Of a stretch of DNA of 56,145 nucleotides, positions 8,762 through 35,236 are shown piece after piece. This DNA is from a phage. Each line of letters opens with the position of its first letter. Position 1 is the first letter of the stretch. The DNA is taken from sequence record PZ386950.1; one strand, given 5' to 3'. The translations under genes and the position numbers were made by a program. The notes under the pieces were generated by a model. That model had not been told where the DNA came from. It was given only the letters and a program-made list of their open reading frames with translations, and did not search any database.

Positions 8762-9721
8762 ATGGCTACTAAAGACCCATACCCGGATATTTCAGACAAG
8801 TATGACGCTCGTATTCGCGAAGCACTTGATGTCGTGTGGGAAAACGTGCGTCGTAGTGAGTCGTTAGCTAACCTGGAATACATCATTGAAACTCAGGGTA
8901 TTGCCGGATTACTCCCCATTCTTGAAACACTCCCTGATGAACTTAGTGCACAGTTGCGCCCGGTTATTGAAGATGCGATCGCCGAATCAGGTCGTGTAGT
9001 CGTTCAGGTTTTACCGAAAGCGGCTGTGACAGGTCCGGTTGTGTTCAGTCTGGTCACCCCACAGGTCAGTACATACATCAACAACTATGTCGGGCAACTG
9101 ATCCGTGAAGTCAGTGATGAAACAGTCAAAGCTGTTCAGATTGCAGTTAACCAGGGTGTGGTAACCGGACGAAATCCGCGTCAGATAGCCCGTGATTTTC
9201 GATCATCAATAGGGTTAACAACACGGCAGGAAATGACGGTTCAACGTCTGCGATCAGCACTGGAAAAAGGTGAAGCAGGTTATGTGAACAGTCTGACCAC
9301 TGTTACAGACAGTGCAAAGAACGCTGTAAGTGCCGGGAAACTATCACAGGCGAAGATTGACCAGATAATCGAACAGACACGCTTGCGTTATGTAAAACAG
9401 CGCACAGAGACGATTGCGCGTACTGAATCACTTCGTGCTGTATCAGTTGGTCAGGATAAGGCTATTCGTCAAGGGCAGGTTACCGGGGCTATTAGTAATG
9501 AATTGCTGAAGCGCTGGTTATACAGAAAGGATGGTAGGACACGTGACGCGCATATTTCCACGGGCGAAACGAACGGCTGGATACCAATGGACAGACCGTT
9601 TTCAACACCGTTAGGACCACTTATGTTTCCTCGTGATCCTAACGGTAGTGCTGCGAACACGATCAACTGCAGGTGCCGGGTTCAGTATAGTTTACCTGAA
9701 GATATTGGTTCACTGGGTTAG
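8762..9721 (+). CDS. head morphogenesis protein (Mu gpF / SPP1 gp7-like)
   Basis: 319-aa ORF with C-terminal NTINCRCRV motif typical of F-like head morphogenesis proteins. Confidence 0.7.
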   Translation: MATKDPYPDISDKYDARIREALDVVWENVRRSESLANLEYIIETQGIAGLLPILETLPDELSAQLRPVIEDAIAESGRVVVQVLPKAAVTGPVVFSLVTPQVSTYINNYVGQLIREVSDETVKAVQIAVNQGVVTGRNPRQIARDFRSSIGLTTRQEMTVQRLRSALEKGEAGYVNSLTTVTDSAKNAVSAGKLSQAKIDQIIEQTRLRYVKQRTETIARTESLRAVSVGQDKAIRQGQVTGAISNELLKRWLYRKDGRTRDAHISTGETNGWIPMDRPFSTPLGPLMFPRDPNGSAANTINCRCRVQYSLPEDIGSLG

Positions 9722-10227
9722 ATGTGACACGGCATTACAATCATATATGCATCGTTTGGAAAATGAATATGAACCGGTCGATTAGAACTTTGCATACTAA
9801 TTTTTGCTTTACACACCCCGAAATATTTAGCCGCTTTAGCAGCGTCGTTTAAATATTGCAAATTCAGTCCGATTTCCGAAATTTTACATTCATCATAGCG
9901 AGCAACTCTACGCCAGTCTGGGTAACGCCCGTCAACAATGTCCAATGGTGTTTGTTGAACAGTCTCACCATTAACATCACAAAATGTTGCTGTATTATGT
10001 GTCACATCGATTAATACATGGTCAAATTTAGCTGGTGCTTTACCTTTAACAGATACAATAACAGTTTCATCATCTGTCATTGCTTTACCAACGAACATCC
10101 TGTAACCATCGGTTGACACAATAAAACCATCACTGTCAATACAGACCCCGTTGAAACAACAACGAACGTCGTTTTTTGCAGCGCAAAGAATTGCACACAT
10201 AAATTCAGGTCTACTAACTCTAATCAT
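9718..10227 (-). CDS. single-domain DNA polymerase III beta-clamp-like protein
   Basis: 169 aa from ATG 10227; VRCCFNGVCID...STDGYRMFV and IVDGRYPDWRRV closely match DnaN motifs (RYYLNG...ATDGHRLAV; LVDGRFPDYRRV). Confidence 0.6.
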   Translation of the reverse strand: MIRVSRPEFMCAILCAAKNDVRCCFNGVCIDSDGFIVSTDGYRMFVGKAMTDDETVIVSVKGKAPAKFDHVLIDVTHNTATFCDVNGETVQQTPLDIVDGRYPDWRRVARYDECKISEIGLNLQYLNDAAKAAKYFGVCKAKISMQSSNRPVHIHFPNDAYMIVMPCHI

Positions 10228-10499
10228 TCCTGTTTCTCCCCGCAGAACGGACAATAAGACATTTTGATGTTGGTTTCCAGGCGTGTGAAGTTCTTCGCCA
10301 GTTCACCGTTTTTCTTTTTGGCACGGTATGCAAGACGATATTTCAACATAACGTGAATTTTACCAGACGTCAGACCGAAACACTGATTATCCCAGCCAAC
10401 TTTATCAAACAGGTTAGTGCTGACTTCCGAACCTACTGGTACTTTTACCATCAGACGTTTTTGAAGTTCGTCACCAACTTTTTTCATGCAATCACACAT
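10224..10499 (-). CDS. zinc-ribbon protein
   Basis: 91 aa, N-terminal CDC and C-terminal CPFCG. Confidence 0.5.
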   Translation of the reverse strand: MCDCMKKVGDELQKRLMVKVPVGSEVSTNLFDKVGWDNQCFGLTSGKIHVMLKYRLAYRAKKKNGELAKNFTRLETNIKMSYCPFCGEKQE

Positions 10500-10660
10500 T
10501 ATGTATACCTCGATAGACGTTTTAATTTAACTATTAATCTTGTGACTTTACTCCAGTCAGATTCAGTAAAGTCGTCCACGTCTTTAGCCCATAACTCATT
10601 AACATGTCGTGGGTTATATGGTTCTTTCTTGACAGGCTGTTTCCGTTTCTTTTTACCCAT
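10499..10660 (-). CDS. small basic protein (about 53 aa)
   Basis: ATG at 10660 with GGGGAA RBS; TAATG overlap with downstream gene; not in track. Confidence 0.35.
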   Translation of the reverse strand: MGKKKRKQPVKKEPYNPRHVNELWAKDVDDFTESDWSKVTRLIVKLKRLSRYT

Positions 10661-10663
10661 AGG

Positions 10664-11044
10664 TTATTCCCCAGGGTGACGGATATTCAGATCCGGGAGA
10701 ATTTGCATCGGGTTAAACGTAACACGATAACGATACTGATCTGTTGGTGAAGGGTCTGTTTGTTCAATGAAATAAGTTACCTCCGTGGTTAACCCCATAA
10801 AGTGTTTCTTAACGTCGTTCGGACCAGTTTTACAGGTGATTTCGATCTCTTTGCTAGTGTTCTCACGGGCACAACGACCTTCGATAGACAAAAGATACTC
10901 ACCGTTACGAACATTATAGAAAACGATACGACGATTTACTTCAAAGTTAGCTGCAGCGGTTGCAACGTTACGACTGGCAACATCAGCAGCGTTATCACAG
11001 GCTGTCAGGGTTGTTAACATTGCGCATAGAATCAGTTTCTTCAT
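10664..11044 (-). CDS. lipoprotein
   Basis: MKKLILCAMLTTLTAC: signal peptide with lipobox LTAC. Confidence 0.65.
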   Translation of the reverse strand: MKKLILCAMLTTLTACDNAADVASRNVATAAANFEVNRRIVFYNVRNGEYLLSIEGRCARENTSKEIEITCKTGPNDVKKHFMGLTTEVTYFIEQTDPSPTDQYRYRVTFNPMQILPDLNIRHPGE

Positions 11045-11059
11045 TTTAGTGTCTCGGAG

Positions 11060-11461
11060 TTATTTAATGATTAATGTTGGTTGTAAGTCTTCTTCATACC
11101 AAGTCCAACCAATGCATGTACCATCTTCAGCATCAACATATGGTTTCAACCAGTCGATAAATTGTTCAATCTCACCACCATAATTTTTAATATCGCTACG
11201 ACTAAAAATATATTGAGTATCGGTGAAATCAAATTTAGGACAACTATTTATTACTTCCGGGTGATGATAAAAACTGCTACAACTACCAATAAAATTCCAT
11301 CTGGGGAGACTGAAAAACTTATGTTGTGGTAGTTTCTCTGGTTCTTTTTCACCACAGAACATGTGTGCAATAATAGCTTTCACATCCACAGGTACATCTG
11401 CTTTAATCTGACACTTCAACACTAATTCGGTATACATTCCCATTTTCACATCCTCATTCAC
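11060..11461 (-). CDS. hypothetical protein
   Basis: 133-aa ORF; alternative start at 11443 has better RBS (GAGGA). Confidence 0.5.
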   Translation of the reverse strand: MNEDVKMGMYTELVLKCQIKADVPVDVKAIIAHMFCGEKEPEKLPQHKFFSLPRWNFIGSCSSFYHHPEVINSCPKFDFTDTQYIFSRSDIKNYGGEIEQFIDWLKPYVDAEDGTCIGWTWYEEDLQPTLIIK

Positions 11462-11856: not shown

Positions 11857-11886
11857 GTGGTTAAGAAAACAAGAAGGGTTGAATGT

Positions 11887-12255
11887 ATGGATCCGAACAT
11901 CAGAGTTGCCACAGACGAATTCATTCGTCGCGCCTGTAAAATTCATGGTGATCGTTACGACTACTCATTCAGCATTGTTGAAGATAGTTCCAGCACAGTG
12001 GTTATTATTGACCGTGAAACTAATACAGTGTTTTTCCAGGTTGTCGCTGAACATCTGGACGGTGTTGAACCAGTAACGACTGCTGTTGAACCGGTAACGA
12101 CTGCTGTTGAACCGGTAACGACTGTTGTTGAACCGGTCAAGAATCTTTCTGAGACATTCGGTAACGTTGCAAACAGCGTGTATCACCAGTGCAATTATTC
12201 ATCTGAAATGTTAGAATTTAGTCATGTTGAAACAATACGAGGACAGTCCCCGTGA
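11887..12255 (+). CDS. hypothetical protein with VEPVTTA tandem repeats
   Basis: track ORF starts at GTG inside the promoter -10; trimmed to in-frame ATG 11887 with RBS AAGAAGGG. Confidence 0.55.
   Translation: MDPNIRVATDEFIRRACKIHGDRYDYSFSIVEDSSSTVVIIDRETNTVFFQVVAEHLDGVEPVTTAVEPVTTAVEPVTTVVEPVKNLSETFGNVANSVYHQCNYSSEMLEFSHVETIRGQSP
12064..12137 (+). repeat. 21-bp coding tandem repeat (about 3.5 copies)
   Basis: gttgaaccRgtaacgactgct repeated, encoding VEPVTTA. Confidence 0.85.
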
Positions 12256-32477: not shown

Positions 32478-32811
32478 GGTTGTTTTCCTGCATCTGTAAG
32501 AACACAATCATTGCGGCACGGAGTGGGTTAGCGTGAATAACACATGAGTCATCCGCATAAATCATTTCTGTCGCATCACCAGTAATTCCATCAATAGCAG
32601 CATTGTCAGGTAAAGCGATCCATGATGAATCTGTTGAAACAATACTAATTTTATTTTCAATAATAATCGGCATTGCATCGTCTGGTTTATTACAATAATC
32701 GACTACTTGATTCACCAGTTTGAGACGATGTTCATGTGATGGTTCACCGTACAATTTACGACTAACCATTGCGTTGATTGAAATATCACTTAAAACACTG
32801 TAATCAGTCAT
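32470..32811 (-). CDS. hypothetical protein
   Basis: 113-aa ORF. Confidence 0.5.
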   Translation of the reverse strand: MTDYSVLSDISINAMVSRKLYGEPSHEHRLKLVNQVVDYCNKPDDAMPIIIENKISIVSTDSSWIALPDNAAIDGITGDATEMIYADDSCVIHANPLRAAMIVFLQMQENNHD

Positions 32812-33340
32812 GACGATTCATTCCCTCTAACATGTCCCAGATAAGCGCAACACGACGCGGATCCGTGCTGATAGTGTGTAAAGTTTCACATCCGTAATGC
32901 CATCCCCAACGAACGGATAATTCAGACAGCAGATAACCACGGGAATTAGCTAGTTCAGCCAGTTCACCAGGTTTGAACGTCGTTGTATTAGGTTCTGTAA
33001 GAACACGAGTACCACAGATAGCGTCACTGATGCGCCACGGTTTCATCAGGTCATCAACCTTGTACCAGTTACTGATACTGATTTCAGACGTTCCCCAGCG
33101 TGCAGCCAGTTTCAGACGTTCCTGACGGGCCGGGAACATTGGCATCTGTGGTAAACGCAGTTGAATCTGTTCTGCAGGTTCGAACATATCGTCGTCTGTT
33201 AAACGGAATTCACCACGGTCATCAATATAAAAACCACGGGAACGACCGTCGCGGGTGAACCCGTCAACACGGTTATAAATTTTACCGGGAGTAAAGACAC
33301 CAATCGGTGAACCAGCTACGAATTTGTGTGAAGTATGCAT
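32804..33340 (-). CDS. hypothetical protein
   Basis: 178-aa ORF downstream of polymerase gene. Confidence 0.5.
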   Translation of the reverse strand: MHTSHKFVAGSPIGVFTPGKIYNRVDGFTRDGRSRGFYIDDRGEFRLTDDDMFEPAEQIQLRLPQMPMFPARQERLKLAARWGTSEISISNWYKVDDLMKPWRISDAICGTRVLTEPNTTTFKPGELAELANSRGYLLSELSVRWGWHYGCETLHTISTDPRRVALIWDMLEGMNRHD

Positions 33341-33379: not shown

Positions 33380-35236
33380 TTACCGAAGTGGTGCAACGAG
33401 TTTTTCAGCTTCTTTGATGTAAAAATCATAATTGAGTGTTGCCCGGTTAAAACGTTTCATGTCGTTACACTCAGTGGTCAACCAACCTTTACACACTGAC
33501 ATGCGGCGTTCAGGCGCATCAGGGTTCAGTTTCAGTGATTTTGCCAGCGGTGGCATGACTTTTGTTAATGGTGCACCATCTGTGCTGACATAATAACGGG
33601 TAATGTTCTGAACCTGTTTGTCACCCCATAGTAATTTGCTATTACGCGGTACTTTCGTCACCAACATAAAATCGTGAATGTCTTCGTGTGATGTTATAAA
33701 ATCACGAATGTCTTTATTGTGTACCAGTGCTGCTTCAGCCGCTTTTGCAACAACCTGCATACTGTGGTTTTGATGCCAACCCAGATCAACACTGTGGCAA
33801 TAAGCACCTTTACGTTTAACCTTCTTACCACCTTCATAAACAGCGATGTAGTTATTTACATCGCGGATAAACATCACGTCATAAATCGCTTCTTCAAGCT
33901 GGAGTCTGGTTAATTTTTCCCACGCGTGACGAACCTGTTCTACTTGTTCGGTAAACACTCGTGGCACGTAAACCGTAAGACCATCTGTGTTAGCCTGGAT
34001 CATGGACAAACCAGGGATTTTCAGAAGTTCTTCAGCCAACATGCACAAAAGTAACTGTCCATTAATCGTAATAGCCATTGTATAAGCAGGATCGTAGAAC
34101 GGGCTGTATACGTTATTACTGTCGCCATACACACCGTTTAACGCCAGTTTTAACATTGCATTTTCTGGTGTACCTTTCGGGTAACTGGAACGCATGTCAT
34201 AAACATTTTTATAAATGGTGCAAAATTGTTTTCCCAAATGTGCAGGGTAAAGTTCATTACTAATCGCAAGGTTTGGATAAAAACTGGCAACGTCCAGATC
34301 GATGATCACATAATTTTCAGTGGACCTGATAGTTTGAGATTCAATAGACCCGTGGATACCACCCGTACCAAAATCAAACGAGAACCCGTTAATGTCTGCG
34401 CTTAAATCAGTAAACACACCTTTTGTTTCAGTGATGACCTGTTGACGTAACCAGTTAAGAACACGATTAAATTCAGGCTGTTCAAAACGAACATAAGGGA
34501 AAATCACACTGTTCAATGCGATTGATGGTCTGTGCGTCTGCCGTGGTTTTCTGCTACCCGGTTCGAAACATTGAATACCTGATTTTTTAAGTTCCATGAT
34601 GAAATAGTCTTTACCGATTTTCGTGTCGTTATGGTTCATGAAATTACGACCGTATTTAGCAGAAAGTTCACGACGAAAATCGATCAGCTTTTTACTGTGT
34701 TTATAAAACATCAAAGTCGCTTTTAAATCGTGTATCAGATATTGACGAAGCGTATCAATTTGAGAATCGGTTAAATAAGTCCCTGGGGTAAACGGAAGGT
34801 CTTCAATGTTTTCCATTCTCATGTTGAACTCAAGTGTTTTCAGACTTGTTCGTTTTGCCTGGTTGTCGAAATGATGAATTTTATACAAATCAAGTTGGGG
34901 AACTATCCAGTCTTTTTCCCACACCATATGAGCAAAACGATTTTCATCACCAGCGTTAATTATCGAATCACCTTTTTTGTAAATGTCTGCGTTGGTGATA
35001 TACATGATGTTGTTCAAAATAGAATGCTGAACAGGATAGTCGTAACCTAGATTGTTATAACCAACTTCTTCAGCACGATGTTCACGCAAATATTCTGTGA
35101 ACAGGTAAAAAGCCTGACGATCGTCGCGACGATGTGAAATCTCAAAAATATAAGGTGTTTCAGTTAATGCGTGAATAGCACCGAACAGGAAAACATTAGG
35201 ATAATTTTCAATATCGTGAATGTAAGCATCTGACAT
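33380..35236 (-). CDS. family B DNA polymerase (compact, with 3'-5' exonuclease motifs)
   Basis: Exo I HDIEN, Exo II YNNLGYDYP, Exo III YLIHD; polymerase motif A DLDVASFYPN, motif B KLALNGVYG, motif C ANTDG. Confidence 0.75.
   Translation of the reverse strand: MSDAYIHDIENYPNVFLFGAIHALTETPYIFEISHRRDDRQAFYLFTEYLREHRAEEVGYNNLGYDYPVQHSILNNIMYITNADIYKKGDSIINAGDENRFAHMVWEKDWIVPQLDLYKIHHFDNQAKRTSLKTLEFNMRMENIEDLPFTPGTYLTDSQIDTLRQYLIHDLKATLMFYKHSKKLIDFRRELSAKYGRNFMNHNDTKIGKDYFIMELKKSGIQCFEPGSRKPRQTHRPSIALNSVIFPYVRFEQPEFNRVLNWLRQQVITETKGVFTDLSADINGFSFDFGTGGIHGSIESQTIRSTENYVIIDLDVASFYPNLAISNELYPAHLGKQFCTIYKNVYDMRSSYPKGTPENAMLKLALNGVYGDSNNVYSPFYDPAYTMAITINGQLLLCMLAEELLKIPGLSMIQANTDGLTVYVPRVFTEQVEQVRHAWEKLTRLQLEEAIYDVMFIRDVNNYIAVYEGGKKVKRKGAYCHSVDLGWHQNHSMQVVAKAAEAALVHNKDIRDFITSHEDIHDFMLVTKVPRNSKLLWGDKQVQNITRYYVSTDGAPLTKVMPPLAKSLKLNPDAPERRMSVCKGWLTTECNDMKRFNRATLNYDFYIKEAEKLVAPLR

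Follow-up and report, generated by a model that had tools for sequence, protein, structure and literature searches.

A 169-amino-acid protein encoded in a 56,145-nucleotide stretch of phage DNA (sequence record PZ386950.1, the whole of which is called the window here) is supported, by sequence comparison and predicted structure, as a true, stand-alone but truncated homolog of the bacterial beta sliding clamp, DnaN. The window belongs to a 9NA-like (Sashavirus) Escherichia coli phage, and we refer to the protein as the mini-clamp. It appears to be reduced to domain II of DnaN and the adjoining half of domain III, with the hydrophobic cleft for clamp-binding motifs (CBMs) as essentially the sole clamp feature kept; most likely, it cannot encircle DNA as a closed ring. 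The family to which it belongs is a structural variant of the clamp, with the pocket retained and the ring lost, and we did not find its logic described in the literature searched. We tentatively propose, with slightly less than even confidence, that the mini-clamp is a soluble, non-ring module that would bind CBMs through this pocket and compete with the host clamp.

Taken as a single sequence, the mini-clamp gives a weak but consistent clamp signal. It matches PF02767 at E 0.014 (16.1 bits) and PF02768 at 12.6 bits, both under the curated cut-off of 27, and TIGR00663 at E 5.7e-8 (32.1 bits), where the curated cut-off is 137.65, so that its scores fall far under those set for full DnaN families; the Pfam search gave no match to the DnaN N-terminal domain, and phmmer against the PDB found E. 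coli beta at E 0.002. A profile built from 79 diverse family members (collected by homology, mean identity 25%) matches E. coli beta at E 1.7e-26, and hhalign of this family against DnaN gives a probability of 99.5% (E 5.3e-23). An AlphaFold2 (AF2) model from 126 homologs reached a predicted local distance difference test (pLDDT) score of 89 and a predicted template-modelling score (pTM) of 0.87, and a structure-based fold search returned sliding clamps only. The original prediction for this gene, made from the letters of the window, had pointed to a resemblance to DnaN domain II, and the motifs DVRCCFNG, TDGYRM and DGRYPDWRRV are indeed all present; profile search and alignment likewise bear out the similarity to DnaN. 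It had also described the protein as a single-domain clamp homolog, of which the clamp homology stands but the domain count does not, as the protein comprises about 1.5 domains (domain II and half of domain III).

That the gene is a functionless, decaying fragment of a phage dnaN, or part of a frameshifted larger gene, is very improbable. When E. coli DnaN was searched against the whole window by tblastn, only the mini-clamp open reading frame (ORF) was matched (E 7e-5; next best 0.3), and both flanks are occupied by other, overlapping genes. With no second DnaN-like piece in the window and with the flanks occupied, a frameshifted dnaN in the flanking sequence, raised by the original prediction as a possible refutation, is ruled out, and we regard the fragment alternative as refuted. 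The idea of a dead fragment draws on the historical annotation of Bcep781 gp15 as 'DNA Pol III b subunit fragment' and on several unusual substitutions in the window copy, but the ratio of nonsynonymous to synonymous substitution rates (dN/dS) is 0.16 between the mini-clamp and an 81%-identical homolog in the same slot of a metagenome contig, the start codon shows translational coupling, about 400 clusters agree in length and architecture, and a 98%-identical copy stands in the same operon on three further, independent metagenome contigs.

The alignment defines what was kept and what was lost. hhalign spans DnaN 138-250 and then 313-366, skipping 251-312, and HMMER places a second stretch (118-175) on DnaN 313-366 at 21 bits; in the domain III part, AF2 predicts one helix (H125-136) and three strands (E142-144, E152-156 and E160-164), and the C-terminus matches DnaN MPMRL, of which the family form is MPxR(L). 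Whereas DnaN (E. coli, PDB 2POL/1MMI) has 366 amino acids in three domains, the fold shared by the 169 amino acids of the mini-clamp is that of domain II together with the C-terminal half of domain III; neither domain I nor the N-terminal half of domain III has a counterpart. In addition, DnaN carries two inner-ring helices per domain, but in domain II of the mini-clamp the second of these (DnaN 197-208) is replaced by the short loop KGKAPAK (10027-10047). In the AF2 model, strands 56-60 and 70-74 are joined by a 10-residue loop, with no helix at this place.

To relate these segments to function, published residue lists (PMC11139829) were mapped onto E. coli DnaN numbering. The CBM pocket of DnaN consists of 18 residues across subsite I (R152, L155, T172, G174, H175, R176, L177, P242, R246, V247, V360 and M362) and subsite II (H175, N320, Y323, V344, M362, P363, M364 and R365), and the dimer interface includes I78, F106, R103, I272, L273, E298 and E304 (PMC11139829). 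All 18 pocket residues lie in the segments that the mini-clamp retains, while every listed interface residue lies in a segment that it has lost. The loss of domain I and of the first half of domain III thus takes away the residues that close the ring, and the mini-clamp has neither the dimer interface nor the ring of DnaN. The suggestion in the original prediction of a novel ring, a cap or a poison of the host clamp fares poorly here: the regions of I78/F106 and of I272/L273/E298/E304 are missing, and since the ring-closing and capping parts are exactly those that are absent, a native-like ring, cap or poison subunit is unlikely.

The pocket is also where the family is most constrained. The six most conserved columns among the 79 members are G174, M362, R152, P242, P363 and T172 (DnaN numbering), pocket residues make up 10 of the 15 most conserved columns (hypergeometric p 5e-8), and the median column entropy is 0.85 bits in the pocket compared to 2.90 bits in the rest (Mann-Whitney p 7e-7). 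Among the segments, conservation peaks in the linker and in that half of domain II which adjoins the pocket, and it is lowest in the half remote from the pocket, which has lost its inner-ring helix. The conserved pocket residues are those that form the CBM cleft in DnaN, and the cleft appears to be retained across the mini-clamp family. Of the 18 pocket positions, the window copy shares 11 with E. coli, has conservative replacements at 3 and is otherwise changed at 4 (H175Y, V344N, M364C and R365H). An assembly into a novel ring or cap, either of the mini-clamp with itself or with host beta (e.g., four copies of 1.5 domains, giving 6 domains), is improbable on this evidence: clamp rings do tolerate varied subunit numbers, and the sheet edges exposed by the loss of neighbouring domains could pair, but in the native clamp these edges do not pair with each other, conservation is focused on the pocket and not on them, the known ring-closing interface residues are all deleted, and one of the three inner helices is missing.

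Selection apparently keeps the docking groove while the ring-closing parts have been discarded, and the most economical reading is a CBM-binding module that works off DNA. The mini-clamp, presumably as a monomer, would bind peptides of the QL[S/D]LF type, as carried by polymerases, the clamp loader, Hda, MutS/L and other clients, and would act as a titrator or decoy that competes with the host beta2 ring for at least one of these clients, thereby shifting host replication or repair to the phage's favour during infection. Candidate clients include the alpha and delta subunits of DNA polymerase III (Pol III), Hda, Pol II/IV/V, MutS/L and ligase, and may extend to transposases or to phage factors (e.g., MuC) that dock in this groove.

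Comparison of phage genomes indicates that the mini-clamp gene is an accessory gene. The window is ~96% identical to KarinMuster_Bas82, vB_EcoS_AVIO78A and PDP46 over the tested 2.8-kb region, and all three lack the mini-clamp and have other small ORFs in the same slot. This slot, between the head-morphogenesis and zinc-ribbon genes, is hypervariable among these ~96%-identical Sashaviruses: it holds two small ORFs in Bas82, a 307-amino-acid ORF and three small ones in PDP46, and the mini-clamp in the window (window 9718-10227 was compared with L001 3519-3920 and L002 2012-3662). The mini-clamp also lies outside the replication module of the window. Sampling of annotated phage records and metagenome contigs gave eight other contexts, which span six named genera. 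In seven of them the homolog forms an antisense island in or beside structural (head/tail) modules and has no constant neighbour, namely EP23 (Dhillonvirus), W5_chr3 (Cornellvirus), Bcep781 (Naesvirus), Proteus 2207-N35 (Gorganvirus), Skate/seszw (Skatevirus), KpV2811 and one of two metagenome contigs; in the second metagenome contig, the homolog is found among small early-type ORFs. Some members of the family come from phages that encode a polymerase (EP23 and the window), others from phages for which none is annotated (Skate, T1-like).

The deposited genomes of the CRISPR-reduced Salmonella phage seszw (MZ375327-MZ375354; PMC9825161) allow dispensability to be read directly. The homolog is cleanly deleted in at least nine viable genome-reduced mutants and retained in others (PMC9825161), and is therefore dispensable on the laboratory host. 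Among the reduced genomes, including large-plaque clones (e.g., seszw_290L), some carry the clamp-like gene 16 and some do not, and together they constitute a ready-made knockout resource.

Small size, mobility, variable presence in near-identical phages, moron-like slots and dispensability on a laboratory host make up a counter-defence profile, and the sole retained feature of the mini-clamp is a conserved ligand-binding site. One could therefore envisage an anti-defence or anti-toxin decoy whose free pocket soaks up a host effector or toxin that docks on the beta-clamp cleft, so protecting phage or host replication. We consider this quite unlikely, and give equally little weight to the targets it would call for, which are SocB-type clamp poisons or clamp-recruited nucleases. 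The argument is one of analogy, no partner gene is linked to the mini-clamp, and a defence system acting through the clamp cleft was not found in the literature searched. The PADLOC defence models gave no significant match to the mini-clamp, the best being a lone, weak match to a Type I specificity subunit (PDLC03102, E 0.003, 14.7 bits).

The original prediction had also envisaged that the mini-clamp recruits the phage polymerase. The DNA polymerase of the window (phrog_1252; 33380-35236, minus strand) has no Pfam match at E<=0.001 and resembles archaeal family-B polymerases weakly (E 0.002), and appears to be a divergent polymerase. A CBM scan found no such motif in it or in the EP23 polymerase, and recruitment through the pocket is therefore without support. 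Across all ORFs of the window, the scan gave 2 pentamer and 9 hexamer matches, which is roughly what chance would yield (about 1 pentamer estimated). A 178-amino-acid protein encoded directly downstream of the polymerase (phrog_19205; 32804-33340, minus strand) carries QIQLRL and QMPMF adjacent to each other at residues 58-69. With the genome-wide number of matches at the chance level, these CBM-like strings are no more than a lead for a contact with the host clamp. A hexamer, QMHLSL, in the ParB-like neighbour of the homolog in Skate and KpV2811 was considered as a partner motif and rejected, as it falls in an apparent helix-turn-helix region.

Several observations weigh against the proposed competition for CBMs. 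No CBM-bearing partner was found beside the clamp-like gene. In true DnaN, too, conservation is highest in the pocket motifs, so that some pocket conservation is to be expected in a family collected by homology. Phages that lack a polymerase, such as Skate, presumably need host Pol III and its clamp, and a strong general competitor would then be harmful to them. The window copy departs from the family at Y153C, Y154C, L155F, H175Y, M364C and R365H. Its residues C23, C24, F25, Y42 and C167 (Y153, Y154, L155, H175 and M364 in the family) are common to the window protein and its 98%-identical twin, whereas H168 in place of R365 is found in the window protein alone and the twin keeps the arginine; where the PHROG 3007 family has Y, Y, H and R, the window copy thus has C23, C24, Y42 and H168. 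Since the 81%-identical relative retains YY and H at these positions, the changes at the pocket rim of the window copy are recent. The groove of this copy may have been retuned, or may be relaxing and weakened, and the substitutions lower our confidence that the window protein binds canonical motifs. Finally, half of the family is basic (median isoelectric point (pI) 8.2, compared to 5.6 for the same region of DnaN), and these members could point instead to DNA binding.

Such basic proteins, of which the family has many, would suit a non-ring tether or processivity adaptor that, by a logic like that of herpesvirus UL42, binds DNA and holds a polymerase on the phage DNA, thereby aiding phage replication and not inhibiting the host. 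The family is common in T1-like phages without a polymerase (e.g., Skate), and the conserved pocket could hold the CBM of Pol III alpha. But the window protein, with a pI of 6.5, is not basic and has lost one of the helices that face DNA, and no CBM is present in the polymerases of the window and EP23. In addition, the gene is an accessory one in Sashavirus, located outside the replication module, and the homolog is dispensable in seszw. Overall, we find this role unlikely, and the same applies to either polymerase that it might serve, be it host Pol III alpha, held by its CBM, or a component of the phage replisome.

The mini-clamp matches PHROG 3007 over its full length (E 4.4e-41; residues 1-168 on profile positions 2-185 of 190), and 399 clusters (50% identity) were recovered at E<1e-10 when the profile was searched exhaustively. 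Among the best 150 clusters, 138 are 160-210 amino acids long, and overall the mini-clamp architecture is shared by about 400 clusters of phage proteins of 165-205 amino acids; BFVD contains dozens of phage clamp-like models of 160-250 amino acids. Proteins of the PHROG 3007/Bcep781 gp15 type resemble the mini-clamp in size, architecture and antisense position in structural modules. The closest homolog in phage records is 44% identical and none exceeds 60%, the exact protein is absent from a collection of 15 billion sequences, and at the DNA level, 5,426 complete E. coli genomes contain no match to the gene. A functional study of short phage clamp-like proteins was not found in the literature searched, which makes the window gene a divergent representative of a family that is catalogued yet uncharacterised.

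The labels carried by this family are inconsistent. PHROG 3007, like many phage genomes, uses the name 'RusA-like Holliday junction resolvase', and other labels are DNA polymerase III beta subunit, beta clamp domain-containing protein and, for Bcep781 gp15, the subunit fragment mentioned above. The RusA label is unsupported because Pfam gives no RusA match in the window protein or in any of the 79 members and because the fold is that of a clamp; it looks like a propagated annotation error. Among the BFVD models, a 1394-amino-acid phage protein annotated as 'large polyvalent protein-associated domain' (A0A6J7W9M3_1) gave a clamp-like structural match (E 4e-6, template-modelling score (TM) 0.55). 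If this match is real, a mini-clamp module would be part of a polyvalent (injected, counter-defence) protein, which would bear on function. An apparent fusion, P0037 (1005 amino acids, 10 matched stretches), was rejected as a repetitive Ig-like protein with a spurious match.

The ORF is a real gene (Table 1). Its ATG is preceded by GGAG 8 nt upstream and overlaps the stop codon of the upstream zinc-ribbon gene as ATGA, the same start methionine is used in the homologs, and its stop overlaps that of the convergent head-morphogenesis gene by 4 nt. The G+C content of 38% is in the lowest 6% of the genome. The mini-clamp closes a short operon on the minus strand, following the zinc-ribbon and lipoprotein-like genes; the original prediction had placed it in an early operon with these two. 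The zinc-ribbon gene is also found in relatives without a mini-clamp, and the 126-amino-acid lipoprotein-like gene (10664-11044, minus strand) has the lipobox LTAC and matches Pfam Phage_VG64 and phrog_478. The name given to phrog_478 in PHROGs, 'recombination directionality factor', is hard to square with a signal peptide and a lipobox. A promoter and terminator scan around the accessory operon gave no excess over the shuffled expectation.

Table 1. Coordinates of the mini-clamp, its segments and motifs, and the adjacent genes in the window
Feature	Position	Strand	Basis or remark
Mini-clamp coding sequence, 169 amino acids	9718..10227	minus	ATG at 10227, stop codon 9718-9720
Residues 1-111, DnaN domain II (~127-250) and II-III linker	9895..10227	minus	hhalign, HMMER
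Residues ~112-169, last beta-alpha-beta-beta-beta of DnaN domain III, 313-366	9721..9894	minus	hhalign, HMMER, AF2
DVRCCFNG, DnaN D150-G157; subsite I R152 and L155	10147..10170	minus	column table
TDGYRM, DnaN T172-L177; subsite I, H175 bridges the subsites	10096..10113	minus	column table; pocket of PMC11139829
DGRYPDWRRV, DnaN D238-V247; pocket P242, R246, V247	9904..9933	minus	column table
IGLNLQYL, DnaN I317-V324; subsite II N320, Y323	9850..9873	minus	column table
IVMPCHI, DnaN V360-L366; pocket V360, M362, P363, M364, R365	9721..9741	minus	HMMER, column table
Zinc-ribbon-like protein, 91 amino acids, CxxC...CPFC, phrog_7033	10224..10499	minus	upstream of the mini-clamp
Remaining accessory operon	10499..11461	minus	53-amino-acid basic, 126-amino-acid lipoprotein-like and 133-amino-acid phrog_4334 proteins
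Head-morphogenesis (Mu F-like) gene	8762..9721	plus	convergent; fixed edge of the variable slot

Two further observations concern this region. On a low-coverage metagenome contig (L018 1028-1786), the 81%-identical homolog has no stop codon and runs on for 83 codons antisense into the head-morphogenesis gene; this 252-amino-acid stopless call may be an assembly error or a real loss of the stop. On the other side of the accessory operon, a 132-amino-acid ORF (11857-12255), the first gene of a plus-strand block diverging from the operon, contains a 21-bp tandem repeat (window 12063-12137; 3.6 copies, 96% matches) that encodes (A/V)VEPVTT repeats.

Known clamp derivatives differ from the mini-clamp in instructive ways. 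E. coli beta*, an internal dnaN product that starts at DnaN M135 and consists of domains II and III (Skaliter and Livneh, 1996), reportedly forms a functional ring and acts as a trimer. Beta* and the mini-clamp, which aligns from ~127-138, are both truncated at the N-terminus with a similar start and a retained pocket, but beta* keeps the whole of domain III, whereas the mini-clamp lacks DnaN 251-312 and the interface within it. The herpesvirus processivity factors UL42, UL44, BMRF1 and PF-8 are essential subunits in replication that contain two complete clamp domains and bind directly to DNA; the mini-clamp has no sequence relationship to them beyond the fold. Phages are known to manipulate the beta-clamp interaction network, as Twort Gp168 (PDB 7EVP) and phage Mu MuC (PMC12867686) show, and overexpression of MuC is reported to be lethal and to disturb clamp-dependent control by Hda (PMC12867686). 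Gp168 and MuC are clamp ligands, in contrast to the mini-clamp, which is a copy of the receptor site of the clamp and would represent the inverse strategy.

On a broader scale, and with more doubt than we attach to CBM binding by the mini-clamp itself, short phage clamp proteins might form a widespread, as yet unrecognised receptor-mimic class of host-takeover or counter-defence factors that sequester clamp-binding host proteins, with the groove of the Sashavirus copy (Y153C, Y154C, H175Y) retuned to a different ligand. Their targets may include Hda, the delta wrench of the clamp loader, polymerases for repair or translesion synthesis, or an immune effector or toxin that docks on the clamp. 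The presence and absence of the gene among near-identical phages, together with the viable mutants in which the homolog is deleted, make the hypothesis directly testable by genetics and by peptide-binding assays. A natural, groove-only protein of this kind would also correct a widespread mis-annotation, as hundreds of phage genomes label such genes as Pol III beta subunits or RusA resolvases. The peptide groove of the clamp is a hub of bacterial replication and repair and an antibiotic target. If the receptor-mimic reading is true, the family would be nature's minimal stand-alone CBM-binding domain. As a natural protein that folds on its own and retains the groove alone, the mini-clamp would reveal an inverted phage strategy, in which the receptor is copied rather than a ligand made, and would provide a simple reagent for titrating clamp clients in vivo and for screening groove binders.
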